A DNA stretch of 64,000 bases, from NCBI RefSeq assembly GCF_964204645.1, contig NC_134034.1, positions 7,352,914 to 7,416,913 on the forward strand, read 5' to 3'. Every line of letters begins with the position of its first letter. Position 1 is the stretch's first letter. Positions 21,733-60,206 of this stretch are shown in pieces. Source of the stretch: Tubulanus polymorphus. Its lineage: Eukaryota > Animalia > Nemertea. Below the pieces are notes generated by a model. It was not told the DNA's origin. It ran no database searches and saw only the letters and a program-made list of their open reading frames with translations. The position numbers and the translations under genes are program-made.

Positions 21733-23149
21733 CTAGGGGTCCAGGGACACCATGCTCACTTGGGAAGTGGTTTCAAATGCTCAACTATCTAACAATTTAA
21801 ATACATAACGCCCTCTAGTGACCATATACAAAAACCAATGACCTTGAAACCCACCACAATCATAGAACATGTGAGCAGCTATGATTTTGTAATTGATTGT
21901 GATAACAAAATATGCCTCGTTACCAATTTAATATGGAAATACTAAGTTATTCTACTATTCAACGCCCTCTGGTGACCATATGCAAAACCCAATGACCTTG
22001 AAACTCACCACAATCGTAGTACATGTCATGAAATACAATTTTGCAATTGATCATAGTAACAAAATATGCCTAGGTACCAATCTAATAAGGAAATACTAAG
22101 CCATTCTACTATTCAGCGCCCCCTGGTGACTATATAGAATAACTAATGTCCTTAAAAACTCACCACAATCATAGACGATGTCATGAACTACAACTTAACA
22201 ATGGATCATGGTAACAAACTATGCCTAGGTACCAATCTAATAAGGAAAAACTAAGCTTTTCTACTATTCAACGCCCCCTGGTGACTATATGGAATAACTA
22301 ATGTCCTTAAAAACTCACCACAATCATAGACGATGTCATGAACTACAACTTTGCAATTGATCATGGTAACAAAATATGCCTTGGTACAAATATAATATAG
22401 CGATACTAAGTTATTGTATTATTCAACGCCCCCTGATGGCCACATACGAAAACCAATGACCTTGAAACTCACCAAAATCATAGAACACGTTATGGGCTAC
22501 AACTTTACAATTGAATATAGTAACACAATATGCTTAGGTATCAATTTAATGTGGAAAAACTTTTTCCCACCTACGAATGAGTACTGATGACACCAAGATG
22601 GCCGCCAATTGCGTCATAATTGGCTGATCAAAAATACCTGTCCCAGGTATAAAACATCCCTCTCTAAAGAATACCCATCAGCAATTGCAATGAGAAATGG
22701 CAAACCAGTAGGAAGCTACAGGACCTAGAATTCTGGCCAAAATTGACATTTTTGGGCACTAAAAAGGTCATAGGACGGCCATCTTGAGTCAGATCGACCC
22801 ATTTTTCTTATGCTGATGGGCCTTTGGTAGATTCAAATATAAACGAAAGATCAAGGTAATTGATCAAAGCGTCTTCAAAATTTCCCACGAAAACTTCGAA
22901 AATGTTTAAAAAGTGCTGATTATGGCAAACAACAATGGCTGCCAGTCGACCATCTTGAATCTGACAGGGCTAGTTTTTGGGCTGACGATGTGTCTAGGGT
23001 AGATACATGTTTACACCAAATATCAAGACATTACCTTGAAGCGTCTTCAAAACTTCCCAAAATAACTGGATTCCGTCTATGGACGGACGGACGGACGAAA
23101 AGTGAACGCAATAGCCCGCTGGGACTAAAGTCCCAAGTGGACTGAAAAA
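21730..23149 (+). mobile_element. Non-autonomous Helentron/HINE-like element inserted in the satellite
   Basis: Inserted in an A-run without TSD; contains about 154-bp tandem repeats (21808-22555), a (GGAC)n microsatellite and the terminal hairpin TGGGACT-AA-AGTCCCA. A related end lies inverted at 59986-60050. Confidence 0.6.
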
Positions 23150-26100
23150 GAATTGTCGCGGGCGACAAAACCAAACTAATGAATTGTCGCGGGTGATAAA
23201 ACGAAAATATTGAATTGTCACGGGCGACAAAACCAAAATAATGAATTTTCGCGGGCGATAAAACCGTAATAATGAATTGTCACGGGCGATAAAACCAAAA
23301 TAATGAATTATCGCGGGCGACAAAACCAAAATAATGAATTATCGCGGGCGATAAAACCAAAATATTGAATTGTCGCGGGCGACAAATCAAAAAAAAAATT
23401 GTCGCGGGCGACAAAACCAAAAAAAATTGTCGCGGGCGACAAAAACAAAATATAAAACCAAAATAATGAATTGTCGCGGGCGATAAAACCGTAATAATGA
23501 ATTGTCGCGGGCGATAAAACAGAAATAAAGAATTATCGCGGGCGACAAAACCAAAATGATAAATTATCGCGGGCGATAAAACCAAAATATTGAATTGTCG
23601 CGGGCGCCAAAACCAACAAAAAAATTGTCGCGGGCGCCAAAACCAAAAAAAAAATTGTCGCGGGTGACAAAAACAAAATATAAAACCAAAATAATGAATT
23701 GTCGCGGGCGACAAAACTAAAAAGAAGGATTGTCGCGCGCGACAAAACCAAAATAATGAATTGTCGCTGGCGATAAAACCAAAATAGTGAAATGTCGCAG
23801 GCGATAAAACCGGGACAAAAAAAAAATTGTCGAGTGCGATAAAACCAAAATTATGAATTGTTGCGTGTGACAAAACCAAAACAATGAATTGTCGCAGGCG
23901 ATAAAACAAAAATAATGAATTGTCGCGGGTGATAAAACCAAAATATTGAATTGTCGCGGGCGACAAAACCAAACTAATGAATTGTCGCGGGTGACAAAAC
24001 CAAAATAATGAATTGTCGCAGGCGATAAAACCAAAATAATGAATTGTCTCGGGCGACAAAAACATAATATTTAATTGTCACGTGCGATAAAACCAAAATA
24101 ATGAATTTTCGCGGGCGACAAAACCAAAATAATGAATTGTCGCGGGCGACAAAACCAAAATAATGAATTGTTGCGGGTGATAAAACCAAAATAATTATTT
24201 GTTGCGGGCGACAAAACCAAAATATTGAATTGTCGCGGGCGACAAAAAAAAAATTAAACCAAAATAATGAATTGTTGCGGGCGACAAAAACAAAATATAA
24301 AACCAAAATAGTGAATTGTCGCGGGCGACAAAACCAAAATAATGAATTGTCGCTGGAGATAAAACCAAAGTAATGAATTGTCGCGGGCGATAAAACCAAA
24401 ATATTGAATTTTCGCGGGAGACAAAACAAAACTAATGAATTGTCGCGGGCGACAAAACCAAAAAAGAATTGTCGGGGCGACAAAACCAAAATAATGAATT
24501 GCCGCGGGCGACAAAACCAAAATGGTGAATTGTCCAGGGGACAAAACCAAAATGGTGAATTGTCGTGGGCGACAAAACCAAAATAATGAATTGTCGTGGG
24601 CGATAAAACCAAAATAATGAAGTCGCGGGCGACAAAACCAAAATAATGAATTGTTGCGGGCGATAAAACCAAAATAATGATTTGTTGCGGGCGACAAAAC
24701 CAAAATATTGAATTGTCGCGGGCGACAAAAAAAAAATTAAACCAAAATAATGAATTGTCGCAGGCGACAAAAACAAAATATAAAACCAAAATAGTGAATT
24801 GTCGCGGGCGACAAAACCAAAATAATGATTTGTCGCTGGAGATAAAACCAAAGTAATGAATTGTCGCGGGCGATAAAACCAAAATATTGAATTTTCGCGG
24901 GAGACAAAACCAAACTAATGAATTGTCGCGGGCGACAAAACCAAAAAAGAATTGTCGGGGCGACAAAACCAAAATAATGAATTGCCGCGGGCGACAAAAC
25001 CAAAATGGTGAATTGTCCAGGGGACAAAACCAAAATGGTGAATTGTCGTGGGCGACAAAACCAAAATAATGAATTGTCTTGGGCGATAAAACAAAAATAA
25101 TGAATTATCACGGGCGATAAAACAAAAATATTGAATTGTCGCGGGCGATTAAACCAAAATATTGAATTGTCGCGGGCGACAAAACCAAAAAAAGATTGTC
25201 GCGGGCGACAAAAACAAAATATAAAACCAAAATAATGAATTGTGGCGGGCGATAAAACCGTAATAATGAATTGTCGCGGGCGATAAAACAGAAATAAAGA
25301 ATTATCGCGGGCGACAAAACCAAAATGATAAATTATTGCGGGCGATAAAACCAAAATATTGAATTGTCGCGGGCGACAAAACCAAAAAAAAAATTGTCGC
25401 GGGCGCCAAAACCAAAAACAAAATTGTCGCGGGCGACAAAAACAAAATATAAAACCAAAATAATGAATTGTCGCGGGCGACAAAACTAAAAAGAAGGATT
25501 GTCGCGGGCGACAAAACCAAAATAATGAATTGTCGCTGGCGATAAAACCAAAATAATGAATTGTCGCAGGCGATAAAACCGGGACAAAAAAAAAATTGTC
25601 GAGGGCGATAAAACCAAAATTATGAATTGTCGCAGGCGATAAAACCAAAATAATGAATTGTCGCGGGCGATAAACCCAAAATATTGAATTGTCGTGTGCG
25701 ACAAAACCAAAATATTGATTTGTCGCGGGTGACAAAACCAAATTAATGAATTGTCGCGGGCGATAAAACCAAAATAATCAATTGTTCCGGGCGATAAAAC
25801 CAAAACAATCAATTGTCACTGCTGATAAAACCAAAATATTGAATTGTCGCGAGCGACAAAACCAAAATATTGATTTGTCGCGGGTGACAAAACCAAATTA
25901 ATGGATTGTCCCGGGCGATAAAACCAAAACAATGAATTGTCGCGGGCGATAAAACCAAAAAATTGAATTGTCGTGGGCGACAAAACCAAAATACTGATTT
26001 GTCGCGGGTGACAAAACCAAATTAATGAATTGTCGCGGACGATAAAACCAAAATATTTAATTGTCGCAGGCGATAAAACCAAAATCTTGAATTGTCGCGG

Positions 26101-26446
26101 GCGACAAAACCAAAATATTGAATTGTTGCGGGCGACAAAACCAAACTAATGAATTGTTGCGGGCGATAAAACCAAAATAATGAATTGTCGCGGGCGATAA
26201 AACCGCGACAAAAAAAAAAAATTGTCGCGGGCAATAAAACCAAAATAATGAATTGTCGCGTGCGACAAAACCAAAATAATGAATTGTCGCGGGCGATAAA
26301 ACCAAAATAATGAATTGTCGCGGGCGATAAAACCAAAATATTGAATTGTCGCGGGTGACAAAACCAAATTAATGAATTGTCGCGGGCGATAAAATCAAAA
26401 TAATGAGTTGTCGCGGGCGATAAAACCGAAATAATGTTTTGTCGCG
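23146..26446. repeat. 31-bp satellite, main block (about 105 units) with higher-order duplications
   Basis: Same unit; variant blocks recur at offsets 483 and 1769. Confidence 0.97.
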
Positions 26447-26544
26447 TTATTTCAGTTTTGTGGTTTTGTCATAATGTCGCCCTCATTTGCATATACGTGT
26501 TTTTTTTTACACATGGCCCTTATCAGCCACCATACTAAAGCCTT

Positions 26545-26891
26545 AAGGTCGCGTAAAACTCGATAAACACTTCAAGCGACACAGCGAACGATCTCCTTTC
26601 CCCTACAGCGAACGCTTAACCTAGTAGAGGCTACTAGCCTATGTAGGCCTATGTATATGCGTAGGCCTAACATCCGGACAGATTGGTCGTAGGCCTATTG
26701 AATTTAACAACCCACCTAAATATCGTAAATTTTGTTTTGAAGTTCAATCCAATGAGTCCGTTAATAAACGCAACAATTGTACTGTGTTTGTTTGATACAG
26801 TAAAGCTCAGTACCGCCTAAAGCCGCGTCAAACTCGATAAACACTTCAAGCGACACAGCGAACGATCCCTTTCCCCCACAGCGAACGCTTA
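26545..26891. repeat. Two direct repeats of about 72 bp
   Basis: AAACTCGATAAACACTTCAAGCGACACAGCGAACGATC.. at about 26555 and 26830. Confidence 0.85.
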
Positions 26892-28167
26892 CTCCGAATG
26901 TCAAGTGAGTCCAGCATACGGATAGGAGTGTGTTATATACTTGTATTTAGTAAATAACTTGTGCATTTGACAATGATCGGTATGTACTGTAGGAAATATA
27001 GAGTATTGATGGTATTGATATAGAGGTTGAAGCCCGCGGCCGAATAAAGTAATATATTCTTTTATTTTGATACCTCGTCGACATAACAGCTTTTCTCCGC
27101 TATATCTCTTCGGCGTGTTTAGTTTAGGCCTACGATTCCCCGGTACACTAAAGATTTATCTTAGTAAATACACGGTTAATTCGGTGAAGAAAAATAGGTA
27201 TTGTTATACTAACTCCTTGAAACCCGCAGCCAAATCACTGGTAGTAATAAATTAATTTGTACTCGATTTGATTCTCATGATGAGGAGAAACAGGCAGCTG
27301 ATCCCCGGAACGACGATGTAGTAACACACGTCGATTCGTCGATGTTTACGGCTCGACAGTGCTTTTAAAATCTAAAGTAGTAAATTTCCAGTGTATCGGT
27401 AATATGATTTGATGAGGAAAATGGGCTATTGTTAAAATCACTGTTTGAAGACCGCGACTGAATTTGAAGTCTGCGGCAATAAATTAGTTCATTTATACTT
27501 GAATTGATAATCGAAGTGACAGTCGGCCTGCGGGTTGATTTCGGTTTGACGATTCGAAAAACATGTCGCCCCATTGAATGGGGCTAAATTTTCGATGTTT
27601 ACGGCCCGACAGCGCATTTGTAACGATGATTCGTGAAAAAACACGAGGGCTATTTGTAGATCTCAGTGAGCTGAACGATATTATATGGATTGTATATGAA
27701 ACAGTGGTAAGGTAACAAAGCCTATGTTCTTTTGGTAAAAATAGTGTGGAAGAAAATAATAATAATAATAATCACGCGGATATCAATAGGGTTTTCTGTG
27801 AAATAACAGAAAACCCTAATGAATATCTAGAATCCAAAATGACCTTAGTCGTTTTATAAACAACTACAATCATACAGTCAAACATCTGTTACATGTTATT
27901 ATAAGAGAGTGCTTCATTTGAATATTGATCAATCAAACAGGTGTTGCACAACGTTGTTGTTATATTGGATAGCTAGCAGTTACATAATAAGCACGCAGTA
28001 CATACAACACACACAGGCCAGTTAGCCGGCATTGAACTACCACGTTTTCATTGGTTGCTGAAAGCGAGGTTTATTTAAATTAGCTCGGCCGTGACGACAG
28101 GAGGATAGTCATCATTCTCTCTCGTGATTAAAAGGAATATTTCAATGTTTTTACGGTAAGTTTTAGC

Positions 28168-28456
28168 AAAACCACCCGACTTGACTCGCAGAGTTTTTAG
28201 GGGATAAGCATCCCGTTATTGAGAGGCGCCACGAGATACCTATCCCCAAGCATTTCTACTTACACCCCTGTGACCCACGCTTCACCAATTCTCCTTCAAT
28301 GGTTGACAGGAAACACATTATATTAAAGGCGCCTAATGCATTTCCTATCAACCCCTTACCCCCGAAAGGAGGATCGAAAGTCGAAACTGAAGGAGAACCA
28401 CGGAGGGTGGACAAAGGTGCATTTTCGAAATGCCCCTGCAAGCCAAGCCCGGCGGC
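28168..28456 (-). ncRNA. Candidate 289-nt structured Pol III ncRNA (unknown family), copy 2
   Basis: GC-rich island. The 5' and 3' ends pair (19 of 20 bp); internal 20-bp, 17-bp and 14-bp helices are complete only with G-U pairs on the minus strand. Starts at G 31 nt after TATATAA and ends at the first TTTT. Confidence 0.72.
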
Positions 28457-28480
28457 ACTCCAGTGGTTGAATGAATTGCA

Positions 28481-28522
28481 TTATATACTTAGCTAAAACA
28501 CCTAAGTAAATGTTGCTGGTGC
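28481..28522 (-). promoter_or_regulatory. TATA box (28487-28481) and possible PSE-like element near -66
   Basis: Spacing equals that of U6-type Pol III promoters; the PSE match (GCACCAGCAACATTTACT) is weak. Confidence 0.5.
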
Positions 28523-28899
28523 TAAAAAAATATGTGAAATTTGAAATTATAAATTATTCCGAATGAAAAGAATATAAGAATGAAAACTGATAAATGAATT
28601 ATGGATTTTTAACATAATTATGATATAATTTTTAATCAAATTAGTAATCAATTACTATGTTAATTGATTAACAAATTCAAATTCAAATTCAAATATTCAT
28701 TTTAGCATACTCAGTGCTGTCATCTTTAAATTTAAGAAAAAACTAATAATAAGAAACGACTGTAATACAATATTCAAGTAAAAACAAAATAAATTAATAA
28801 AAATAATGAATATCTAGAATCCGAAATGACTTATCTGGACAATTTAATTGCTCCGCATAGATAGACAAAAGTAGTGAGATATTCAATTAATTAAAAAAA

Positions 28900-29280
28900 T
28901 TATTTTTTTTGCTTTTTTCTAACATATTCATCCATTTTCTTTATTATCAATTTTGGAATTTCAGAAGTATTTTCATTTTTAATAGCAGTTATTTCAGGAT
29001 TATTAATATCATGAATTTTATTTGATTTCTTATACCAATTACACCCAATCAAAATGAATACAATTACGAATCCAACTGTAAAATATGAATATTTATCAAA
29101 TATTCTATTATCAGAAGGATTAGAAATAACAATATTTTCACTATTTTTATTAACATTTATATTACTTATTTTTTCTTTTACAGCTTTTTTATATTCTTGT
29201 GATTTAATTCCTAATTGCCGAGACCATTCAATTTGTTTCTGTGATCTCGGTTTTTTCTTCACTTCTTCCACCTCGCTCAT
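28900..29280 (-). CDS. Polinton single-pass membrane protein
   Basis: ORF with TAAATG start and one hydrophobic segment. Confidence 0.7.
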   Translation of the reverse strand: MSEVEEVKKKPRSQKQIEWSRQLGIKSQEYKKAVKEKISNINVNKNSENIVISNPSDNRIFDKYSYFTVGFVIVFILIGCNWYKKSNKIHDINNPEITAIKNENTSEIPKLIIKKMDEYVRKKQKK

Positions 29281-29818
29281 TTATTATAGAAATATTTTTA
29301 CTTTCAATATTTGAAAATGTTATAACCCCAGTTGATAATAATGTCATATATCCACCTAATTGAAATGATAAATATCCAATCCATTTATTTAATTCAGTCA
29401 TAACTAAATAATCATTTTTTAAATCGGAATATAATCTATTTTCATCTTCAATTGGTAGTATATAATTACATAATTTACTATAACCTTTTACTACATTTTC
29501 TGATATCGCGTCATTAATTCTAGCTGTTCTCGCGGCTTCATAAATCTTAAATAATCTAATAATTTCATCTGATTTCATTGTATCTAATTCATTATAAGTT
29601 AAATTTTTACGGACAAAATTTTTACATTTTCCAGATGCTATTAATATTTCTAATTGATGTTTACAGTAAAGATAATATTCATAATTATTATTTGTTGTAA
29701 CATTATTTAAAACACCATCATCTGGAATTAATTTGTTTTCTGTTATTCCTAAATCATCTAAAGTTTTTTCAATTGGAACATCACCATTTTTAGATTTTAT
29801 TTTCTTTTCACCTACCAT
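29228..29818 (-). CDS. Polinton hypothetical protein, 196 aa
   Basis: ORF with T7-GTTATA-TAAATG start context. Confidence 0.7.
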   Translation of the reverse strand: MVGEKKIKSKNGDVPIEKTLDDLGITENKLIPDDGVLNNVTTNNNYEYYLYCKHQLEILIASGKCKNFVRKNLTYNELDTMKSDEIIRLFKIYEAARTARINDAISENVVKGYSKLCNYILPIEDENRLYSDLKNDYLVMTELNKWIGYLSFQLGGYMTLLSTGVITFSNIESKNISIINERGGRSEEKTEITETN

Positions 29819-30165: not shown

Positions 30166-30726
30166 TTATCTTTTAATATTTTTCAACTTATCCATATATT
30201 CATTATGTAAATCATGTGGAATAATATCATTTTCCTCAAGTGCATTTTTCATCGATTTTCTATCTTTATTGTAGAAAAAAACTAGAAATCTAATGTTTTC
30301 TCTAAAGTCTTTAACAATTGAATTATATTTTTGATTTAAAACCCAAGTTGTTATCCCAAAATGTCTCCCGGAGAAAGCTAAATAACATAACTCACTTTCT
30401 CTAACTTTTGAATCATGTAAATTTGCACAATCATCTATGATAAATAATGTATTTGATCCTTTATAAATATCAATTGCTATTTTTATACAATTATCTAAAT
30501 TTTCTTTTACTGTTTTAGGATCTAATATAATAAATTTATTATTTCTAGTAATATTTCGATCATAAGTTTGATTAAATTCATATGTTGGACAAAATAATAC
30601 TATATTATCAAAATAGTTTTTATAAACAGTTTCTAATAAATTTAATATAAAATAAGTTTTTCCACAATTTGTTACACCAGAAATTAACATATTATGAGGC
30701 TTAAATATGAATAATTCCTTATTCAT
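30166..30726 (-). CDS. A32/FtsK-HerA-like DNA packaging ATPase
   Basis: GVTNCGKT, LFIIDD, SGRH, VLNQ. Confidence 0.92.
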   Translation of the reverse strand: MNKELFIFKPHNMLISGVTNCGKTYFILNLLETVYKNYFDNIVLFCPTYEFNQTYDRNITRNNKFIILDPKTVKENLDNCIKIAIDIYKGSNTLFIIDDCANLHDSKVRESELCYLAFSGRHFGITTWVLNQKYNSIVKDFRENIRFLVFFYNKDRKSMKNALEENDIIPHDLHNEYMDKLKNIKR

Positions 30727-31853
30727 TTATATATTTTTAATTTTACTTGATAATATCCATTTATTGAATTTATTTGGCCATCCAACCCATTTTACTAAAG
30801 AATATTTTTTCTTTTAATAGTTTTTGTTTTTAATACTTTTTCAATTTTATATTCTTGTTCTAGATTTTCAGTAGTTAAACTTAATTCTTCTTCGTAAAAG
30901 TAGCCATCAACTTCTTCACCATCTAAATCTTCTAATTTATAGACATATGGTTTTGTTGTTATTACCTTTTTTATTTTATATATTTCTCTAGTAAAATTTC
31001 GATCGTATCCTTTATCAAATATCTTTTTATACTTAGAAATTCTAACATTTTGACCAACTTTAAATTTAGGTTCACCAAAATCATCTACAAGAAATACTCC
31101 ATATAAATTATTCCAAACAATTTCAGCATTTTCAGGTTTTCTAGCATCAATAGGTTTCATTCCAATAGAAGAATGATAAGAATTATTATAACCTTCTATC
31201 AATTTTGGTAAAACATCAATCCATTTTAAAGTATTATTTGCTGTAAAATATTTCCACATTCTTGTTCTTAATGTTCTATTAAATCGTTCAACAACTGCTG
31301 CTTTTTTATCTGATTTTGTTGAAAAATATTTAATATTATGATTATCTAAGAGCTCATGAACAAGTGAATTATCAAACTCTTTTCCATCATCAAATTGTAT
31401 TTTTTCTGGTTTTAGTTTATCATCCGAAAGAAATTTTCTTAAAACATTTGATGTTTGTACAGCATCTTTTCTATAAAGTGGGAAGCTCCATACATAACGA
31501 CTAAAAATATCAATTATATTCAATAACCACCAATAATCATCATTATCTTTCGTAACATTTTTCATATCAATTAAATCTCCTTGCCACTGTTGATCTACAT
31601 AACTTACCATAGTTTTACGAGTTTTATATTTTCTAACAATTTTTTTATGTGTTGTGTATGTTGGTTGTTCTAACATAAATTCATTTATATCTTTATATTT
31701 AACTAAATTGTGTGGGATTATCTTATCTAATTTATCTTGTTTTACTTTACACCATATATTTTTAGTAGAAGGATAAGCAACCGAACTCTCAGGGTTGTAA
31801 TATAAATTTCTTAAATATTGTTCTTTAGTATTAGGAGTTTTTTTACCTCCCAT
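30727..31853 (-). CDS. Retroviral-type (rve) integrase with C-terminal chromodomain
   Basis: DDE residues in WQGDLID, QFDDGKEF and VERFNRTL; the chromodomain LVKWVGWPNKFNKWI follows a frameshift in an A-run near 30810. Confidence 0.93.
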
Positions 31854-31883: not shown

Positions 31884-33131
31884 CTAATATTGAATACTAT
31901 CTAACTGTGAATTTACAATATTTAATTGTGCGTCAGATATAATATAAATGTGCATTTTGAAATTTTTGTCTCCTTTTTTCTTTTTCATGAATAATCGTAT
32001 TCCATCTTTAGTGTTTTGTAATTTCTTCCCAGAACCATGTAATGAATTATCCTCTGTTGTTCTAAAATCTAACCATAATGCATATTTATTACCGGTATAA
32101 TAATCAATTTGATTAATATTACAATTTTCAAATGATTTTACTTTTTCATTCATAAAATGTTTTCTAATTTCTGGCCATTGATCAATCATTCTCATTCCTT
32201 GACAAAATATTTTATTTGCTATTCCTTCGATAGTTATTTCAACTTTTGTTATTTCAGGATTATAATAATTATCTACCTTTATTGGACCATTAGAATATGT
32301 TGCAATGGTAAAAAATATTAATATACCTTTAATAGATCTTCTTGGGAAGTTAATATTCTCATTAATTATTTCATCATTTGCATTAATAGTTACAGTTTTA
32401 AATTTATCAATATAATCATATAATAATGAAAATCCTTGATTGTATTCAGTTTGAATTGTGCTAGCAATATTTTCATTAGTTACTGTGTTATATTCTAAAC
32501 ATATATTCGATAATTTATAACCCATATCTTTAACAACGCTAGATAATAAAATTTCATTTACAGGAGCAAATGTTATCTCAAATATAATATCTTCTTGAAT
32601 TGCATATTTATATAAAGGTGCATTGTTATTTATCAATTCAAAGTCTAATGGAATTTTATATTTGCTTCCATAAATCTTTTTAATCAAATTATCTGAGGCA
32701 CGAGTTACTATTGCGTCATTAGCTCCTGATCTTAATTTATTATGGTTTTCCGATTGAATACCCTGAAATATCATATTATTTCTATTTTCTTTAGTTAACC
32801 ATAAATCTTTATAATGCATAAATAAATTATAATCATCTAATGAGAAAACTGTTTCTGGACCAAACTTTATAATTAATTTTTTAATCAAATATCTCCCAAC
32901 ATTATCGACAACATAATTATTATCATGACCAGTTACTTTTATATCGGCTGATAAATAAATACTGTTTGGAACATAAAAAGTATTTTGTGTTAATCTAGGA
33001 ATTCTAACATATAAAGTTTCATCGGGATTAATATTTGAAGGGTTATGAGTAATTATATGATGTGATCTTTCTGCTTTAATAGCATTAGATATTCTAGAAA
33101 TCTTAGAGGGACTTATATAACTCCCACTCAT
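31884..33131 (-). CDS. Major capsid protein (double jelly-roll, inferred), 415 aa, intact
   Basis: Size, beta-strand-rich pattern, position beside integrase and ATPase, and strong conservation with element A. Confidence 0.75.
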   Translation of the reverse strand: MSGSYISPSKISRISNAIKAERSHHIITHNPSNINPDETLYVRIPRLTQNTFYVPNSIYLSADIKVTGHDNNYVVDNVGRYLIKKLIIKFGPETVFSLDDYNLFMHYKDLWLTKENRNNMIFQGIQSENHNKLRSGANDAIVTRASDNLIKKIYGSKYKIPLDFELINNNAPLYKYAIQEDIIFEITFAPVNEILLSSVVKDMGYKLSNICLEYNTVTNENIASTIQTEYNQGFSLLYDYIDKFKTVTINANDEIINENINFPRRSIKGILIFFTIATYSNGPIKVDNYYNPEITKVEITIEGIANKIFCQGMRMIDQWPEIRKHFMNEKVKSFENCNINQIDYYTGNKYALWLDFRTTEDNSLHGSGKKLQNTKDGIRLFMKKKKGDKNFKMHIYIISDAQLNIVNSQLDSIQY

Positions 33132-38331: not shown

Positions 38332-39647
38332 ATGGATGAGAAGATAGCATGCGAAATTTGTGGTGAACTTCTAAGAAAAAGTAATATGGCTCGACATATG
38401 AAAAAACATGATGAAAATTATAAACCCCCTAAAATAAACTGCCCAAAATGTAATAAATTATTCTCAAGAAATTATGTTAAAAAACATTCAGAGAAGTGTA
38501 GAATTAATGGCGCAACGGCTAATGTTGATAGTAATGAAAGTAATAGTAATTCTGCCGAAGTTGAACCTGAAGTTATTTGGAAAAGACCTTTCTTATTCTA
38601 TGATACGGATAATATAAAAGATCATTTCTGCGAGCCTTGTCGAATAAAATATAACCCTGAAAATATAGAAGATTGGGAGAATCATCAATTTCGTAAAGTA
38701 CATATAGATAAAATTTCTAATAAATTTGAAACTGAATTTAATGAAAGAAAAAATAATTTATTAGAAAAAATAAAATATGAGAAAACGTTACCAGATAATA
38801 GAGAAACAGTTGAAAAGTTAGAAAAACAATATAATGAATTAACAAGAAAAACATATTATTGTAAATATTGTAAATTGATTATTACAACAAGTAATTCAAA
38901 TCTACATAATAGAACATTAAAACATAAAGAAAACGTAAGAAAATACCAAGAGCTTAATGAAGATCTATTACCAATAAATTATAAACGAAAATGTCCACAA
39001 TGTAGTTATGCGACCTTAAGACAAGAAGGTACTGTGTTATTTTGTGTTGATTGTGGGTGGCAAAAGAATTTATGGGGTGAAGAAAAAACTAGAAATTTTC
39101 TCATAGATCCAAAATTAAATTATCTAGATGAAATTTTTAAAATATTTTCTATAGAAGATCATACACCAGAATATATGCAATGGCTTGAAAAAATGAAAAT
39201 AATAGAAAATAAAAATGGCGAAATAACTAAAAAAGATATTATAAATACAATTATTCCGTCAACATTTAACACAAAACAAAAGAAAATGTATTTATATTTA
39301 TTATTTTTAACGATTATTATGAAAAACCTAAATTAACAGTAGAAGATATGGAAAATATAAAAAAAAATATTCAAACAAATATTAATGTATCATTTGGAAA
39401 ATAGAATAACAGATTCAATAAATTATGAATTCTTTTTAAATAAGATTGTAAATTATTTAAACCTAGATATTATAATTCCATTTGACGAATTAACAAACAA
39501 AAAGAAACAAAGAGAGCGAGATGAAATGTGGAACAAGATGGAACTTTATTTAAATGAAAAAATGGAATGGAAGAAGAACCTAAACAATTAAATGAAAATG
39601 AAGAAGCCAATAGTGATTTCGAGTTTGATGATATAGATCCATTTTAA
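38332..39647 (+). CDS. Multi-zinc-finger protein fused to a poxvirus A2/VLTF-3-like late transcription factor domain (homopolymer frameshifts near 39306, 39363 and 39560)
   Basis: Four C2H2/C2HC fingers, then CPQC-x13-CVDC, RNFLIDPKLNYL, KPKLTVEDMENIKKIF, SINYEFFLNKI and DEMW. These match my recollection of vaccinia A2 (CSGC-x13-CIFC, SNFHVSNKLIHL, TINYSFFLDKI). Confidence 0.75.
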
Positions 39648-42600
39648 TAACCATAAGGTAATGTTTTTATACCATCATCTAAAATATGCCTTTTATCATC
39701 AAATGGATTTAAACTAGTTTTTTCAACTTCATTAATGTACATTTCATGATCTTCTGATCTTAAACAATTCATTTTGTGTTTCATTACAATTGATTTATAT
39801 AAACACTTTATATAATCTTGAAATTCTATATGTTTATCAACCACATGTTTTGTTATTCCTTTTAACTTTTTAGCTTCATGATCTTTTGTTCTGTAACTAT
39901 ACATTTTACTTCTTATCCCAACAAATTCAATCATTTCATCACCCCCTAATTCATCTTTAAATTTACCAGGAATCTTTTTATTATCATTGCTAAATAGTTC
40001 ATGATCTTTGGGATAATTGCTAAAATCAAAATAATGTTTTAATGTTTTTAAGTCTTTTGTTATATCATTTGTCTTGATTTTTAGTATGTAACTGTCGGTA
40101 TTTTTTTGGATTAATGGGAACCCAGAATTGAATGTTCCATCATCTGTTGATAAATCATAAACATAGTCAGTTGGGTTATATATTTCAAATAAATCTTTAA
40201 CTTCTTCTGTTAATTCTTTTTCTACATGCCTTAAATTAAAACAATTTGGTTTAGATTTGATTAATTCTATATTCATATTAAATCCTAATGAACTGCATAA
40301 TATATTCAATCCTGATATAGCAACTTTTCCTTTTTGAGCAAAGGATATTGTTTTGCGGTTTTGGAAACTTTTTGAACCATCTGCGGCATAGAATCCAATG
40401 AAGAACCACTTTCTTAAATTATTTTTTGCATTCAATACATAATCTGGAACTATCTTTTCTTTTGTTGAAGTATTACTTTTCACTATTGCATGAATATAGA
40501 ATTCATCATTATATTTTGTAGCAAAATCTTTAGGATTATTTACAAATATTCTATAAACCGCGGATGATTTCATATGATCCATGATTCTAAATGTTTTATA
40601 TGAATAAACTTCTTCGCAGAATTTCTTTATTCTTTCTAATAATTTCAAATCTTGATTGCATAAATACCAACGATATTGAGTGCGATTAACATAATTATAC
40701 ACACCTGCTGAACCATCACCCATGAAAAATCCTTTGATAAAATATTCTTTTTCTTCTAATGTTTCAGGTTCTATATTATAAATATTATCAATAATTTCAT
40801 CAAATGACATATGATTCATTCTTTGGAAAAATCTTTTATGTAATAATTCATCTCCAATTTTTATATCAGTTGGTTTTATTTCATCACCATTTCGTTTAAT
40901 TAAACTATGATCTTCTGTAACATCTACAAATCCTAATTTAGTTCTAACTCTATAGATTTTCTTATTTGTTTTATGCCTAATAATATTCTTTAATTTTTTC
41001 CATCCATTTCTTGTCCAAACATCCATTAAACCATTTATTTGTATTAATTCTTTTTCTCCATATGAAATATAACATTCATTTTGTTTTGGAATTATTTCTG
41101 AAATTCTTCTTATCAATATTTTATTATTACATTTTAATAATATTGGGGTGTCAGCTGTTACAGGATCGAAATATAATATTTCAATATGCTTTTCCCCAAA
41201 AAGTGGTTGTAAAACAATATAATAAAAATCATACATTAATAATTTTGATACTTCTAAAACAGTCGAACCAATAAATATAGGTTTATTAAATTTCATTGAT
41301 GTTCTTTTTAATTTAACTGCTGTTAAATAATCTTCAAATCTTTTATTTCCTAAATGTCTATGACTTGATTGTAGGTGTCTTAATCTTTCAGAATTATTTA
41401 CTAATTCAATATCATTTCTATTTCTAATATTTTCGCATGTTTTACCATAAAAACTATTATTCATTAATTTGAAGAAATCTTTTTCAAAATCTGTTTTTGA
41501 TATGGTTCTCTATTGAGTATTGAAATCTATATATTTTTCTAACCACTTCGATTGATTAAATTCAATATATTTATGTACTTTCTTTAATTTCATTCCTTGT
41601 TTTAGATAAAATTTTAACATTCTATAATGAACAATATAATTGTATTTACTATTTTGAGTAAGTATTAATTTTTCTGTAAAAACATGATCTTTCGGTTTTA
41701 TTTTCTTCTGGTATTCACTTAAATAACTATCATCTACAGTTAAATGTTCTGGGCAATAAGGTAAGTTTCTTGTTTTAAACTTTATATTTTCAGGATATTC
41801 TAAATCAACTACAAAGAAATAACCAATTGGTGCTTCATCTTTTAAACTCGCAATTGCGCTTTCCCAATCAGTTTTATCACCATTTTCAACTTCTGTTAAT
41901 ATAAAACTTTTATATGGTTGAGGTTTCATCATTGCCCAACCATATAAATTATTGGCGTCAATATATAATAATTTATATTCATCATTTGCTTTAAAATATC
42001 TATCTCCCATAACACCACTAATTCCACCTCTAATTGATTTTTCAAATAATAAAACCATATCTGGTTCTTTTAATAAATCTAATTCTACATTTGTATATTT
42101 TAAACCACATTGCCAGGTTAAACCAGGACTAGAGTAGCAATAACAAGGATCAACATTAAAATGATTCAAATTAACTTCTCTAAATTTTTCAAATATGTCA
42201 GCCAATATCATAACGTCTGATTTTAAATATAAATCAACTAATTCACCATGATTTTTCATCTTAAAATGGTTCCAAATATTTAATGTTCTATTAAACACTT
42301 CGTCTTTCACATACTCCTCTTTTAATTGATCATAGAATTGATCTTTTAATAATTCTGTTACATTAAAATCATTGTGTGTTTTATAAAATGAATAAGGAAT
42401 TGCGCCTTTATATCTCAATAATTTAAAATCTTGTTCATTTGGATAATAATATCGAGTTATAACAAAATCATTATCAACTAAACTTTTTGATAAATTATCT
42501 AATGAACTTGCTAGAAATCTATAAGAATCTAAAAATCTAATGCAACCAAATTGAAATGAAATATAATTTTCAGATGTTTTAGCTAATAGTTTAAAATCAT

Positions 42601-44717
42601 ATTTTCTTACATTTGCTTCATTCATAGCATTCATTATATTCTTCTATTTCTTGATTAATTGCGCCAAATTTTCCCGATAATTTTTTTATAAATAGATGGG
42701 TATCATATCCTGATAAATTATGAAATAATATTGGTACGAAATTTACTTTTTTAGCTGGTAAATTGCAATCTTCATGAGCAGCTCCACGATATTTTGAATT
42801 CAAATGATCATGATCTCTAACTCTTTTATCAAATGAATAAAAACGTTTTTCACAATAACAACAATGAGTTGCATAATTAAAATCAATTTCATCTTCTTTT
42901 GTCATAACTATTCTTTTATTTTTGTTTAATAATTTTGCAAAATCACTTTCTAATTCAATCATTTTATCACAAAAATCATTAACTACATTTTCACCTCTAA
43001 AAGAAATATATTGACTTTCATATAATTCAGGATAATTTGATTTTATATAAATTCCATAAGCAGCAGCTCTTTGATGAACTTTTTTAATTGTATTTATAAT
43101 TGGTGGGTCTTGTATTGTGTCTTCATTTAATTCATTTCCTTTATCCATTGATTTTAATAATTGCTTTTTGTTATATATTTCTTTTCTATCTTGATTAGTT
43201 AATTCTTTATTCAATGATTCAAAATCCCCATAAATTACAAATGGAACAATATTCTTAAATTTATGATTAGTAAATTTCAATTTATAATCTTTTTCTGTTG
43301 GCATTATTAATTTACAAAAATCTTTATTATCACATAATTCTTTATGTTTTAGTAACGCATTCTCAGTCATAAATTTAGATAAACATTTTCTACATAGATA
43401 AATTTTATTATGATGATCACTTTCTGTTCTAAAGAATAAATCAATTTGTTTTAACCACATATAATGTTCATTTTCATCTTTTTTGTAATATAACAAATCT
43501 ATAGCATTTTCATCATCATAATATTCTGTTAAATATAAAGCTTCCAATGTATAATCTTTAATATTTTCACCTTTTGTCTTTGGTAATTGCATTAATTCGA
43601 ATACATTTTTTTTTAAATTATTAACTTTTTCTATTTTAGGAATCATTTTCATAGTTACTGGATATTGATCAATTTTATATAATGTTTCATATTTCCGGTA
43701 ATTTGTTATTCTAAAACTATGCGTCATATCTTCTGTTGGGTGTAAACAACTAATAATTGACCATAGAAAACATTTATTATCTTCATTTTGAATATTTATT
43801 ACTGCTTTTGTTGTAAATGGTAATTTAATATAAGATGATGCTTTAATATCCTTTTCTGTTGTAAAGTTTGAATCATTTTTAAACATTTTATTACTTTTTG
43901 ATGTTTTATTCCTTTTTGTATTATAAACATTTAAATCTAAATATATAATTTCATTCAATGTTGAGCCAGAACCCTCAAAATATCTTTCTTCAATATGACG
44001 TTTAAATTCATTAAATATTTTTTCTAACTTCTCTTTTATTTGTGTTTTTGAAATTATTTCTTCAGAGAGTGTTTGAATATTATAATCCATTTTATCTTCT
44101 GACTTTAAAAAACTTACTTTCCCAGAGATACTAATTTTTGGATATTCAACATCTGTTATCAAATCTAGTATTTTTTCTATTATTTCACTAAATTTGCTAT
44201 AATCTTCTATTGTTGTTCCTTTAAAAAATCTAAATATAATAGCTGCAGGACCAATTTTACTACGTAATGTTTCTAAAATTTCAATTGTATCTTTTATTTC
44301 TAGTGAATCAATATAATTTCTAACATTTTCCATGTAAGGTTTATTTGAAATGGATTTAGTTTTTGAAGTTGATTTTTTTACTTGTTGAGGTTTATTATCA
44401 AAATATTCTGGTCCTAAAACATTTTTATTTAAATTTTTATAATGTTTTTGTGATTCGAGATGTCTATTATAATTCCTTTTTATTATAAATTCATTACAAA
44501 CTTCACATTTTATTTCATCCACATTCATATTTTCTAATCGTTCTTTTCTTTCATTGGAATTTTTTGGAGTTTCAAAATCTATTACATTTTTTATATGATT
44601 TGCAGATTTTTCATGTCGTGATTTTTGGGATTTATCGATGTATTTTTTACGATATGTGCAATAATATTGATTTTTATTAACATTATTATTTTCTGGTTGG
44701 TGTTCATTCTCCCCCAT
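39644..44717 (-). CDS. Protein-primed DNA polymerase B with intein (one frameshift near 42625, one stop at 41510)
   Basis: Zn fingers, OTU-like NEDNKCFLW..HYMWL, ExoI-III, RDHDH..RGAAH..CN insert, motif A YIDANNLYG, motif B KLMNNSFYGK, motif C YFD/TDS split by the intein, then RSKMY and KLKGI. Confidence 0.95.
40100..41164 (-). mobile_element. Intein with LAGLIDADG homing endonuclease in pPolB motif C (355 aa, in frame; residue 1 is Pro in this copy)
   Basis: Block A (S/P)VTADTPILL, block B VDVTEDHSL, endonuclease motifs IKGFFMGDG and FIGFYAADG, block F YVYDLST, block G LIQKN followed by +1 Thr (TDS). Confidence 0.95.
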
Positions 44718-44797
44718 TTATAAGGAAAAAAAATTACTTGTGGTGATGAGTGGTCGACCTTCGACCTCTGGTATGAAAGCCTACTTTCCCAATTACT
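44629..44797 (-). repeat. Right terminal inverted repeat of element B; contains the pPolB promoter motif and start codon
   Basis: Reverse complement of 20294-20462. Confidence 0.95.
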
Positions 44798-45768
44798 TAA
44801 ATGCTGTCACTAAAACCGATTCATTTCCAATGCCACGGATCGATGATTTAATTGATAGAATTGGCAACGCAAAATTTGTGTCAACATTTGATTTGACAAA
44901 AGGTTACTGGCAGGTTCCGCTCACTGATCGTGCAAAAATGATTTCGGCCTTTGTTACTCCAAATGAGTTGTTGCAGTATAAAGTTATGCCCTTTGGCATG
45001 AAGAACTCCGCTGCTACGTTTCAGAGGCTAATGAATAGGGTCACTGAAGATTTAGAGTCTACGTATGTGTATTTAGACGATATCGTTTTGGAGGCGGATG
45101 CCTGGGATGATCATCTGACCCAAATTCGTGCTTTCGTCAAATCAACGGCTTTCGTCAAGCCTATACTTGATTTTCCTCAGCCACCTGATAAACGATCATT
45201 AATGCATTTCTTGGGTATGGCTTGTTTTTATCGGAAATTCTGTAGAAATCTAGCTCAAATTACTGCTGTTTTAACTGATTTGTTTAAAAAAGAGGTGAAA
45301 TTTGAATGGACACAGCAGTGTAGTAACGCGTTCGAATCTGTGAAGTCCATGTTGGCAGCTAGTCCTGTATTGCGAGCACCTGATTTTAATAGTCAATTTC
45401 GGCTAAGTATTGATGCTAGCGACAACGGGGCTGGTGCTGTTCTTACTCAGAGTGATAAGGATGGGGTTGAACATCCCGTCTGTTTCTTTTCAAAGAAGTT
45501 CAACTCTGCACAAAAGATTTATTCTACTATTGAAAAGGAGTGTCTCGCGCTGGTACTGGCTGTTGACCATTTCGAGATTTATGTGAGTACCGGGAGATTT
45601 CCTGTAGTCGTATTTACTGATCAGGATCCTTTAGTGTTTTTAAGCAGGATGAAAAATAAAAACAGGAGATTGATGTGTTGGAGTCTGTACCTACAGGAAT
45701 ATAACTTGGATATCCATCACATTCGCGGATCTAAGAATGTGATAGCTGATACATTGTCGCGGGTGTAA
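44798..45768 (+). mobile_element. Gmr1-like Gypsy pol, remainder of RT plus RNase H
   Basis: NAVTKTDSFPMPRIDD, FDLTKGYWQ, MPFGMKNS, YLDD, DAS, YSTIEKE, and NVIADTLSRV followed by a stop with no downstream integrase; short internal deletion near 45140. Confidence 0.92.
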
Positions 45769-47565: not shown

Positions 47566-48610
47566 CTATTGTTCTGAGTACAAATATGGGTACAGCCTAC
47601 TGGCATCAGCCAAAAGCGAATTCCTGGGAATCCCCAGCGAGTAGTCTGGTGGCGAGAGATCGTCACCAGGAGGAGCTGTGAGTGCCAGTACCCCGGGCCC
47701 ACGTTCAGTTCGGGCAACATCATCTATTACAACGATCTCGGGCTCCACGGACGAAACTGTCAGCTGAGTCGCTTCTCGTAACTCCGTGCTAAAAGAACGA
47801 TACACTGCGACAACCACTACCTTACTCGGAACCGATACGAGCTGTCTCATCGTGAAAAGACTAACCCGTAGGGGCACCGAGCAAGACGTCGGCAGATTGT
47901 ACATCGTTCCTTGCGAACAAGTCAGTTGCTTAGTCCGCCAGGTTAAGTTCAAGCGGGCGACTCCACAAATGACCCGTAATGCAACCTTAGTGAGAGCTGG
48001 AGGTTCAAAACGACATCTCGTTTCGCAACCGGACAATGTTAGTAGAGGCAAGTCCAATGTCTGAATTCCATTCTTAAGCCTTATGGCTAGCCTAACCGGA
48101 TATTTTCCCGGTGAACAAGGTGCAGGCAAACAGTGTCGGCACCTGTAGCACATAGCACGCAATAAAGGTCTGAGAACAGGACGAAATCGACGCGCACATT
48201 TTTAGCCATGACAACTTCCCGGATGACTATATTATTCCAGCCCCCTTGCTTTAAATCATGAATAGCGGGGTGAGCAGTCACCATGGCCTCAGCGGTCGGA
48301 AGGAGTCCTGCCCCCAGAATTGATAAGGAACCTTGAATTTAGTGTCCACCGTAGCCACTTTTGACCAGTTATTAGGCTGTAGGCGATGCGCCTCACGAAA
48401 CATTTCCAAATAGCCGGAGCAGTGAGAACGAAGTTCTGGCTGGACAAGAGAACAGCGTAGCCGCAAGCCTTTACTCAGGGGGTCATTAACAACTAGCCGC
48501 GGTATAGCGAACGTGTGAAACCAGACACCATAGTTTGGCCTCAAGACCGTCGAGGGCATCAGACAATAGGCCGACGACCATATGGCCACCAAGATTACGA
48601 CAATTTGCAT
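47566..48610 (-). pseudogene. Envelope-like ORF relic of a second Gypsy element
   Basis: Signal-peptide-like MQIVVILVAIWSSAYC followed by RPNYGVWF; Cys-rich, frameshifted; lies directly after pol. Confidence 0.5.
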
Positions 48611-49790
48611 CCTGAAAAATAGGGATAGCAAGAATCAGTAACCTCGAAACCACGTACTAGTCGTCTCTTTCTCGACGTCTCTTCTTTATTTTTACGAGTT
48701 TTTCGCTTCACTTTAGCGGTATGGTCATCCCAATAGACTCGAATGATTTCAGGAGGCAGGTTGTCGGCTGGCTCAAACGTGTTCTCATTATCGTCATAGC
48801 CAACCCATTTTATAAGATATTTCAGAATGCCTTTCTCTTTTTTGTGACGAATCACTCGTTCTACGTGATAGATTGGCTAAACCGGCCTTTCTTAGTCATC
48901 TGGTGTAAGGGGGCCGCAATAGTGCTGTAACCTTTACAAAAACGCCGATAATAATTGGTGAACCCCAGAAAACTTCGTAGTTCTTAAAGTTAGTTAAAGT
49001 CGTGGGAACAGGCCATTCCTGTACGGCTGCTACCTTTTCCGGGTCAGTAGCAATGCCATCCCTGGATATACGATGTCCCAAGAAGTCAATGGTTTTGACC
49101 GCGAACCGACATTTCTTGGGGTTTAAGCGAAGGCCTGACTCACGAAACCGATCAAATATTCGGGCCAAATGATTTAAATGGCTATAAAATGAGTCCGAGT
49201 AGCAGATTATATCGTCCAAATATACCAAACAAAATTTTCCAACCAGGTCTCTTAGCAAACCACCGGTCAACCTTTGAAAGGTAGATGGCGCCGATTTTAG
49301 ACCAAATGGGAGTACCTTAAATTCCAAAAGAGACGACTGGGTTATGAAAGCAGTTTTTTCTCTACTGGCCTCATCGACCTCAACTTGCCAGTAGCCACTT
49401 AGAAAATCAAGTGAGCTGAAGAATGTGGGTGCTGCTTGCCCAACTTGAGCCAAGAGATCATCGATTCTAGGCAGGGGGAAGGAGTCCGAACGAGTGACCG
49501 CATTCAATCCCCGATAGTCAACACAGAATCTCCACTTGACTTCACCATCCGGGCTCTTTTTTCGTACGAGAACTACTGGGGCGGCCCATGGGCTAGTACT
49601 ATGCTGTACTACTCCCATGTCCAACATCTGTTTCACATGAGTGTTCGATGACATCTTGCATGGCTGGAGAGGCTCTATAAGGCCTTTTCCGAATCGGAGC
49701 TGCGTCCCCTGTGTCAATGACGTGCTTGACTAAGTCGGTTTTGCCAAGTTCGTCCGGCGATGTCCCTGTATGAGCGGATGAGTTCTAAAA
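48595..49790 (-). mobile_element. Second Gypsy pol relic: RT joined by deletion to an integrase chromodomain
   Basis: SPWAAPVVLV..WRFCVDYR..LPFGLKSAP..YLDD; then [22 protein letters not shown]. Confidence 0.9.
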
Positions 49791-57478: not shown

Positions 57479-58214
57479 TGTCTTCCGAGTCAGAGAACTC
57501 CTGTCCCAGGGATGTTACCCACGCAGATCCTGACCGCAAGGATTTTGACGAATTTTCTTGGAGGCAGGTCCCATCCCGCATCCGGGTTCCAGGAAGTCGT
57601 CGCCTTGGTTTCCACCATCCGAATTGACCACTTCCTGTTCACCATTAACGTTTGACCGACCGCCTTTGGGCTCGTTCGCTACCAGTTTCAGCACCGGTGG
57701 ATAGTCCGTTTTACACGCTCATTCAAAAGGTTTTATGCAAACATGGCGCCACCATGCCTAAACCTCGTAAGTCCGCGGAACAGATACCGCCTCCAAGGAG
57801 GATGCTCACGCTCTTGACGAGTCATCTGTGGTGGCAGCCGAGTTGATGTGTATTGATAAATACGGGTCCAGGACCGGCCGACTGTGCTTACCTATCCCCC
57901 GCTGGAGTCGGGCCCCCAAGCCGGGAAAGTTTCTCTCTCTGGCTGAGCCACCTATCGACGGTTTAAGAACATCCTATGGACCCTGCATGAATAGAATTAT
58001 CTAGTTCCTAGGTCAGTGACTCGTGTGATTTTACTGGCTGTCAATGCTCAAATCAACATGATTCTGGCAGCAAGATCCTCGCTGATTAGGGAAATCCAGC
58101 CGATGGGAAGAGATCGTCCAGAACCTCAAAATTACACAGCCAAATTGGAGAAATGTGCTCCCTTCACCAGTAAATGAATTGAGATTAAATGATTGTTAAC
58201 AAATTGAACATGTA

Positions 58215-58420
58215 CACTATCACTACAACATGTTTACAGTGCTTAAGGCCTCGGGAGGCTTACGCACTGTGACAGACATGTCCTTTCTCAGCGAGCATCT
58301 AGTTTCGCATGACCTCACCAAAACAGGTTTCAGACGCTTCTTCCTGGCAATGGGTGGATCCAGACTTGTTCAGGTGCCAAATCCACCCCAAGTCGCGTCG
58401 CTACCTCCGGGTCATCTAGC
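58215..58420 (+). pseudogene. DIRS-like reverse transcriptase relic
   Basis: MFTVLKASGGLRTVTDMSFL and, in another frame, IHPKSRRYLR. Confidence 0.5.
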
Positions 58421-60206
58421 ACTTGTTTAAAATCACAAAATGGCAAGCCCATACTTAGTACATCTTCCTAGTCAAAAGATATATTTGATTTTCTTCTGTA
58501 TTCTTACAGAGATGTTTCGCAGTTGAAGGATGGTGATTTGGTTAATTTGCTAAATAAAAATCGTGAATATCTAGGCAGCATTTTCCAAAGCTAAGCATTA
58601 TTTTTTTCTCAACCTTTTTCGTACTGCTCTTCTGTTCTCCATATTTTGACAGGTTTGGACCTTTTGAATAAAGACTGGTGATTGATTTATTTGATCTCAA
58701 AAATTTGTGATCTCAAAAATTTAAAAAAATTGTTGATTACTTCGAATAATACATCACATTAGTAGAGATCACCTTCGCATGTTATAAGTATACATTGCCC
58801 ATAGCAATTATATTAAACTTGATATGAACTATGATTTCAGATTTTATGTGGACATCCTAATGATCATAAAGCAGGAGGAAAGAAAAGGTGTAAGTATAAA
58901 TAATGGGCCATATTTGCTGAATGTATCACAAGACCAAACTACAGTGCCAGTCAGTAGTTGAGGTTTTATTGATGTTGGTATCTCCGTGCGCTGATAATTT
59001 TCTGTTTGAATGGTCTAAAGGTTATCTTGGTAAATGAAACAATAACGTTGCTCACGCATGATAAACCCCGAAAGTATAGCACTTCTGCTGCACTTACAGC
59101 ATAAGTTACAGTAGTTTAGGGATATCTATTTTAATTGACCTTCCAAATAAAACATGTTGTATCTACCAATCGAATGAATAAAAGGGGCCCATTTTAAGAT
59201 GAAAAAATACCCACAAGAAGCAAAATTTTCAATTCAATCATGATAAAGCCCATTTTTGGAAGGATCATTTGCTAGTTCTTTATATGTGATGAATTGTTTT
59301 GTCTAAGTTTGTTATAGCCAGGTTCCACTGTAACTACATGTAGATTTTGATCTAATATGTTCATGTTTAAATGGATCTCTTACAGTGAACTTGACGTACC
59401 AGGTACCATATCAACTGTACAGCAACAATTAGTGTGACCTAATTGTGAAACTTTTAACTGATATATATTGTCAGATGCACATGAAGGTACGTATGACTAA
59501 TCATAGGAAAATACATGTACATGAGTATCATCTTTAAAATTTTGAAATATTTTTGTGTCTTCCAGTAGGCCAATATGGATTATGTTTTTCGTGTGCTTCT
59601 TCCTGAGACACTCATTATAATATATATGGAGGTTCATGGAATCACTCATGATAAAGCCGAGGAGCAAATGGTTGAACTTCATAGCAATGAAGATGATTGT
59701 TTAAGGTGGCTGCAAGTGGAAATCATTATGTGATGTTTATTGTTTTCTGTAGAGTGTATTCAAAATCAGTCATTTACTTCAATCATGGGAATATTTTGAG
59801 GTATTGAAAGGGCGCTTACTAAAATTGAAATTAGATTGTTTTTACAAAATAGAATTAGATTTTATGCGGTTTCGGATATTTAGATAAGACCTGTTAATAA
59901 ACCCTTTGTTTTACGGTAACTGTTAATTGGTACCGTAATTATTATGTTGAAAAATGATAAATGGTAAGTGTTAAAAGGTTTTCTCATTTTTAGCTAAACT
60001 GGGACTTAAGTCCCCGTGGGCTATTGCATTCACTTATCATCCGCTTGACTGTCCTAAAACTGAGCCTGTTGGAATCAAGATGACAGTCGCCGCAATCAAC
60101 GCTTTTTACACATTTTATCAATGAAAATTTTGAAGCAAATCGATCAATTATCTTGAACTATATGAGTCCCCCTGTACCCATCAGCATTAGAAGAATTGGG
60201 TCAATT

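Follow-up and report, generated by a model that had tools for sequence, protein, structure and literature searches.

The PolB intein of Mimivirus (R322), as presented in the accessible part of PMC549080, is 351 aa long, starts with Ser, ends with Asn, is followed by Thr at position +1, and contains a LAGLIDADG domain. In these features it resembles the intein described here, which is located in the protein-primed family B DNA polymerase (pPolB) of a Polinton. The PolB inteins of large DNA viruses also have the same site as the Polinton inteins, xxD|TDS in the database relatives. However, the giant-virus host protein is a PF00136 polymerase, whereas here it is the PF03175 protein-primed polymerase of an integrating, 24-kb nuclear element. 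The archaeal inteins TliVMA, PhoVMA, PI-PkoII, and PI-PfuI and the yeast PI-SceI share the two-domain fold with our model of the insert, but they are only 10 to 17% identical to it in structural alignments and sit in cellular host genes.

Inteins of microbial eukaryotes are, like the one in our sequence, found in nuclear DNA, some of them in integrated viral-type polymerases (the Anaeramoeba study PMC10710043 and the survey PMC5784728, accessible parts). In the text available, PMC10710043 reports that some algae and a labyrinthulomycete have PolB inteins of the viral type on nuclear scaffolds, and the intein hosts given in the two papers are fungi, algae, amoebozoans, choanoflagellates, and large DNA viruses. 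The words Polinton, Maverick, animal, and metazoa do not occur in the accessible text of PMC10710043, and no animal or Polinton host is named in the host table of PMC5784728 as available. As far as these published surveys are accessible, they assign inteins to microbes, plastids, and large DNA viruses, and not to animal chromosomes or Polintons.

A nuclease inserted in a Polinton pPolB has likewise been described: pPolB2 proteins contain HNH and VSR domains (10.1101/2023.08.22.554363; PMC11071308). According to the accessible text, these are fused domains with no Hint domain reported, whereas the insert analyzed here is a complete intein in the catalytic motif, for which exact empty alleles exist. 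A single sentence in the available part of PMC11071308 suggests that the HNH/VSR insertions of pPolB come from intein invasions, and the main text of Jeong et al. (10.1101/2023.08.22.554363) contains no occurrence of intein, Hint, or LAGLIDADG. No Hint-type intein of a Polinton or an animal nuclear genome is described in the accessible parts of PMC12220804, PMC3671162, PMC13768754, and PMC5718144. We found none in a Polinton pPolB or an animal nuclear element elsewhere in the literature available, while the extended data of Jeong et al., other supplements, Repbase, InBase, and subscription papers could hold some. In the preliminary description of the locus, too, an intein is not counted among the standard Polinton features.

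An intein in the polymerase gene of an integrated Polinton

The window (the whole stretch of DNA analyzed, 64,000 nt) contains a whole Polinton copy of 24.5 kb at positions 20294 to 44797 (minus strand). It is bounded by terminal inverted repeats of 176 bp (98% identity; 20294 to 20469 and 44622 to 44797) and by a 6-bp target duplication (20288 to 20293 and 44798 to 44803), both of which are part of the definition of Polintons/Mavericks. The flanks of the element join into a single Gypsy reverse transcriptase (RT) frame, so the element was inserted in a Gypsy RT gene. Together, the repeats and the duplication within this gene identify the locus as integrated eukaryotic chromosomal DNA. Further Polinton hallmarks are the pPolB gene (39644 to 44717, minus strand; PF03175, E 7e-12), a retroviral-type integrase (30795 to 31853, minus strand; PF00665, E 3e-10), and an A32-like packaging ATPase (30166 to 30726, minus strand; PF04665, E 2e-13). 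A 415-aa ORF (31884 to 33131, minus strand) is a likely candidate for the double jelly-roll major capsid protein. It had no Pfam, NCBIfam, or PHROG match; its Atlas neighbors (0.97 to 0.98) include some with capsid Pfam families on 10 to 14% of their members, the recognition score being below the threshold. No match to a protease family, which a maturation protease would be expected to give, was detected among the scanned ORFs, several short ORFs lying outside the scan.

The ORF at 41464 to 39644 (minus strand) reads IEILYFD, then 355 aa, then TDSYILK, and thus its pPolB motif C is split. The insert corresponds exactly to positions 41164 to 40100 (minus strand), is 1,065 nt long, and is in frame. 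The point from which it would be removed is motif C of the close, empty relatives P0169, P0171, and P0172 (HIEIMYFD|TDSYILKIK). The GC content of the insert (0.256) is similar to that of the host gene (0.246), which fits a long residence.

The N-terminal Hint half comprises approximately residues 1 to 115 (40820 to 41164, end approximate, minus strand; TIGR01445 at residues 2 to 88, and strands of the model) with block A (xVTADTP) and block B (VTEDH). It is followed by a two-repeat LAGLIDADG endonuclease domain (approximately residues 136 to 313; 40226 to 40759, minus strand) with a fold matching I-DmoI. The motifs GFFMGDG (residues 145 to 151) and GFYAADG (residues 257 to 263) both contain acidic catalytic residues, and an Asp is at the catalytic position in each of block C (40712 to 40747) and block E (40376 to 40411; both minus strand). 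The C-terminal Hint strands (40100 to 40204, minus strand) contain block F (VYD337) and block G, with a Lys-Asn end followed by Thr+1. Apart from the first position, the residues of a class 1 intein are all present: T83 and H86 of block B, D337 of block F, the terminal N355, and Thr+1. The intein N-terminus model TIGR01445 scored 30.9 bits (cutoff, 24.5) and the LAGLIDADG_3 model PF14528 scored 31.6 (cutoff, 22.5); PF14890 scored 28, which is under its cutoff of 35.8, and the C-terminal model TIGR01443 did not match the insert. A sequence search of the PDB gave PI-PkoII as the top match (E 4e-6).

An AlphaFold2 model built on an 86-row alignment had a mean pLDDT of 94.1 and a pTM of 0.93. The top five Foldseek matches of this model in the PDB were the archaeal homing-endonuclease inteins 7qsu, 2cw7, 7qss, 7qst, and 1dq3 (E 2e-16 to 5e-12; TM 0.52 to 0.66); mini-inteins matched the Hint part and I-DmoI the middle. 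The predicted fold is therefore Hint plus LAGLIDADG. We rejected a Hint domain of the hedgehog type or of the bacterial intein-like type, because the endonuclease is nested, the insert ends in Asn before Thr, and exactly empty alleles exist. We conclude that the insert is an intein of a known kind, one that occupies PolB motif C and contains a LAGLIDADG endonuclease; for its host class, the Polinton pPolB, we found no such intein described in the literature available.

According to the class 1 mechanism given in the accessible part of PMC7765530, Cys, Ser, or Thr is needed as the N-terminal nucleophile. The first residue of the copy at 40100 to 41164 is Pro, and so the block A nucleophile is absent from it. 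Among 98 delimited inteins including this one, 97 begin with Ser, and in raw reads of the same species (X6, see below) 251 of 296 differ from the copy at the first codon. Furthermore, its pPolB gene is broken into three ORFs: comparison by tblastn with P0169 and P0044 located a frame change near 42633 to 42667 and a stop at 41510 to 41512. Pro1 and the broken polymerase mark this copy as a decayed, nonfunctional member of its family. A second intein copy lies in a 5'-truncated pPolB fragment (62353 to 63389, plus strand). It begins with Ser, but its frame is interrupted by a stop at codon 163, 28 nt are missing from it, and its endonuclease is broken. The two copies are 38 substitutions apart, with 15, 5, and 18 at the first, second, and third codon positions.

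In the preliminary description, a 355-aa in-frame insert in motif C with two LAGLIDADG motifs had been recognized as a homing-endonuclease intein, and the ORF translation, the empty relatives, the PF14528 score, and the predicted structure bear this out. The claim that all splicing blocks are there holds for B, F, G, and Thr+1 and fails for the block A nucleophile of this copy. Its placement in a Polinton protein-primed polymerase is likewise correct for the element, with its integrase, ATPase, and inverted repeats, although the host gene is broken. The Lys-Asn end, which had been pointed out as a departure from His-Asn, is indeed present, but as a special feature it had to be rejected, since it is the commonest ending in the family (46 of 98 delimited inteins, versus 29 of 98 with His-Asn). 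A penultimate His is found in 6 of the 10 full-length Polinton inteins; this residue is a common but not obligatory assistant in class 1 inteins.

Filled and empty alleles in the same species

Raw whole-genome shotgun reads of the same species (X6) were compared with the window; approximately 12% of the run was read, at 85% likeness. These reads, which come from a single-species run, cover the element and its flanks alike. Four of them and one X1 contig skip a net 1,065 nt at the joint. Against the second copy, a skip of 1,037 nt was seen in 35 reads from 24 starts, and 10 more reads skip 1,037 nt with other letters at the joint. Since these net skips equal the lengths of the two inteins, filled and exactly empty alleles are present in one library. 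The reads thus reveal a multicopy family in which some alleles are without exactly the intein. In line with this, the depth of X6 was 132 to 258 over the intein and 287 to 463 over the seven nearest extein-only bins.

A survey for empty-site alleles had been proposed, and such alleles exist. The empty site deduced by joining the flanks of the window copy is, however, not that of every allele: in some, Thr-Asp-Ser is retained although 4 of the first 9 bases downstream are different. Such differences could reflect a diverged subfamily, a conversion tract, or resistance.

At 57700 to 64000, the depth over the Polinton piece was approximately 150-fold in X1 contigs and approximately 12-fold in X6 reads, relative to the low flank bins. 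The flank bins at 57.7 to 62.2 kb are all repeats, and so these values are relative depths and not copy numbers. The excess may be an artifact of summed contig depth or may come from extra Polinton DNA in the sample. The share in a marine metagenome (X5) was 0.06, which is too small to name a habitat.

The Polinton inteins form one old family

Relatives of the insert included 42 proteins of near length, 276 longer proteins (120 of them among the matches listed), and 2,120 representatives at E 0.001 or better (150 of them among the matches listed). A Polinton pPolB extein was matched by 22 of the 302 relatives among the matches listed. In two word-index searches, P0044 was the top match (62% identity), and P0045, P0046, P0047, P0049, P0052, and P0053 followed at 40 to 49%; most other matches, at approximately 30 to 42%, were polymerases of the PF00136 family that are of the giant-virus or the phage type. 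P0044, P0045 (136 member sequences), P0047, P0052, and P0053 are open, full-length proteins with both pPolB and intein.

The top BFVD matches to the insert were PolB proteins of a phycodnavirus, a pandoravirus, a marseillevirus, and a megavirus (E 4e-31 to 2e-19). Among viral contigs, the top intein matches were giant-virus metagenome-assembled genomes (MAGs), with up to 41% identity to the window intein; none of the best 80 of 515 matches exceeded this value, and a pattern scan of the viral contigs detected relatives of neither P0044 nor the capsid ORF. Named phages gave two weak intein matches (26 to 27%), and in prokaryotic genomes the best matches over most of the length were at most 35% identical (10 loci).

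A quick intein tree was calculated from 86 of 104 delimited inteins, the 18 shorter than 320 or longer than 460 aa being dropped, and a careful one from 40 chosen rows. The 10 full-length Polinton inteins formed one long-stemmed clade in both (SH-aLRT 100; 100/100). This clade meets giant-virus inteins and three PolB inteins of T4-like phages in a polytomy (node support, 95/90), and thus giant viruses and T4-like phages are not separable as the donor. All 10 Polinton inteins keep both endonuclease Asp residues and blocks B and G at identities of 41 to 90%. The S/TxxH/N pattern is also kept in all 10, Pro1 of the window copy being the exception. Many database copies are shortened in the endonuclease domain, and short inteins of 219 to 285 aa occur among the non-Polinton relatives.

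For the exteins, the region upstream of the site was searched, and the best 120 of 3,465 pPolB matches were used. Of these, 3 are filled (the query included) and 98 are empty; 19 remained unscored by the pattern and were left out. An intein is thus found in just 2 of the 119 nonquery rows among these best matches. An extein tree calculated with FastTree (113 rows, of which 15 are filled and 98 are empty; with a long-branch warning), in which the filled rows were mostly picked through the intein search, shows filled polymerases scattered among empty ones. Parsimony needed 13 changes for the 15 filled rows, similar to shuffled labels (62 to 79 of 500 were as low), and this fits repeated gain and repeated exact loss alike. 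The nearest rows to the window pPolB, P0171, P0169, and P0172, are all empty. Furthermore, over 1,089 aa the filled P0045 shares 92% identity with P0175, which is empty.

The comparison of intein and extein trees, proposed in the preliminary description, gave a twofold answer. Deep intein groups largely mirror the extein tree (the window with P0044; P0045 with P0046; P0049 with P0009, P0052, and P0053), which fits long vertical descent. The P0047 intein, in contrast, is 41 to 49% identical to the other Polinton inteins but sits in an unalignable polymerase: by BLASTP, the P0047 polymerase (PF03175) gave an E value above 1 against four of five others and no match to the fifth. Judged by eye, this polymerase may be of the VSR-bearing type. 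Although P0047 is a single long-branch sequence with a weak place in the intein clade (85/54), we infer at least one later jump of the intein into a distant pPolB type. A source among large DNA viruses had also been proposed. The kinship with viral PolB inteins in BFVD, in the MAGs, and in the tree agrees with it, but the insert is a member of an old family over several Polinton lineages and not a one-off gain by the window element.

The wider intein family also occurs in type II topoisomerases, with two inteins in P0048, and in an ADP-ribosylglycohydrolase. The nonpolymerase inteins of this set (P0048, P0156, P0159, and P0069) are mostly located at D|TD sites, which look like motif C of PolB. 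One close relative of the Polinton pPolB, P0170, is labeled Sulfurimonas in UniRef and is probably a misbinned eukaryotic contig.

Proposed life cycle and rival explanations

The reading that we favor, and consider likely, is that of a LAGLIDADG intein in the motif C of Polintons, the intact copies of which splice, restore the polymerase, and home into intein-free sites of sister Polintons. Because the insert splits a catalytic motif, carriers with an open frame would need splicing for an active polymerase site. Class 1 splicing is suggested by Ser1, Thr and His of block B, the terminal Asn, and Thr+1. An acyl shift at Ser1, aided by the block B residues, would be followed by transfer to Thr+1 and Asn cyclization, releasing the intein and leaving motif C whole. 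The freed endonuclease would then cut sister Polintons at their empty motif C, and with a filled copy as the template for repair, the intein would spread among the Polinton copies in one nucleus. The evidence for homing is indirect, while the presence/absence polymorphism is seen directly in the sequence. The long retention of the endonuclease fits repeated homing. The family would go back to one ancient gain, with the PolB of a large DNA virus, at the homologous site, as the source. In short, this is probably a self-splicing, homing intein lineage of Polintons that was taken once from a large DNA virus.

A history in which the intein still splices but no longer homes, being an ancient vertical passenger that was repeatedly and exactly lost when filled alleles recombined with empty copies, appears unlikely to us. 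Such a history would agree with the broadly parallel deep groupings of inteins and exteins, the rarity of filled alleles among close polymerases, the endonuclease-shortened database copies, and the changes just downstream of the site in some empty alleles, which may resist cutting. However, idle endonucleases usually decay to mini-inteins, whereas here both LAGLIDADG Asp residues and the whole domain are kept in all 10 full-length members across identities of 41 to 90%, and the P0047 case needs a lateral move. Still less probable is a weapon that cuts the motif C DNA of a coinfecting large DNA virus or a competing Polinton to the benefit of its carrier. The nearest relatives occupy this site in the PolB of giant viruses, and the motif shows conservation at the protein level. 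However, giant viruses have YGD|TDS as flanks and Polintons a variable xxD|TDS, the element at 20294 to 44797 has no known helper virus, and ordinary homing into sister Polintons accounts for all observations alone. Cutting of the polymerase gene of a helper virus is the less likely activity.

A real intein in nonanimal DNA, whether from contamination, a free virus, or a protist genome, would be a routine extension of the viral and protist inteins. The window has no host gene that fixes the taxon (2 of 38 flank ORFs have a Pfam match, both from retroelements), and named animal pPolB proteins share just 37 to 38% identity with the window ORF: in the best 120 polymerase matches, bivalve proteins are the only eukaryotic ones with a name. 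This explanation is nevertheless highly improbable. The element, with its inverted repeats and 6-bp duplication, splits a Gypsy RT in frame amid satellites and retroelements, and raw reads of a single-species run span element and flanks. Moreover, the matches in prokaryotic genomes and viral contigs stay at or below 35 and 41%, respectively; these low identities and the integration make a free-virus or prokaryotic origin unlikely. The concern about contamination was thus settled in favor of integrated eukaryotic DNA, with an animal as the likely host. On balance, we hold an animal host to be likely and see only a small chance for a nonanimal eukaryote. A LINE RT fragment near 21280 to 21350 resembles, in our judgment, the CR1/L2 type of animals.

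Returning to the homing lineage that we prefer, we lean, by a modest degree, toward the wider view that the Polintons of several animals have long-lived, splicing, homing-competent inteins of their own, derived from large DNA viruses and spreading across copies and polymerase types in animal nuclei. To our knowledge, inteins have been held to be absent from animal chromosomes. If the view is correct, animal chromosomes would contain a gene drive that works by protein splicing and arose naturally, as well as a genetic record of Polintons and large DNA viruses sharing cells. The intein would imply an exchange of DNA between a Polinton and a large DNA virus in a single cell in the past, and intact carriers would depend on protein splicing for their replication. 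With filled and empty alleles in one library, homing, conversion tracts, and resistance become measurable from sequence alone. Intein-bearing pPolB genes look 350 aa too long and are without a contiguous motif C, and thus annotation can misjudge them. The intein also directly supports the guess, published in the accessible part of PMC11071308, that inteins invaded Polinton polymerases.

Surroundings and composition of the element

The element is surrounded by satellites, retroelements, and further pieces of Polintons. At 48598 to 49729 (minus strand), a Gypsy-like RT precedes a fragment of a chromodomain. A 31-bp satellite of approximately 6 kb (21400 to 27800) lies within the Polinton boundaries. 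A direct duplication of 1,558 bp (98.7% identity; 18138 to 19695 and 27858 to 29415) consists of noncoding repeat DNA joined to Polinton genes. Inside the element, a zinc-finger ORF (PF06220; 38332 to 39336, plus strand) is convergent with pPolB. The inverted repeat (44622 to 44797/20294 to 20469) extends over the beginning of the pPolB ORF, and the same upstream motif is used again by a second ORF at 20725.

Another Polinton, which differs in part from the main element, is found at 6900 to 18137. As an empty allele it is uninformative, since its pPolB ends near 9730, before motif C. Its structural genes are 90% identical to those of the main element, while its pPolB is approximately 73% identical at the DNA level and is followed by an inverted ATPase/integrase piece at 79%. 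This mosaic suggests module swapping.
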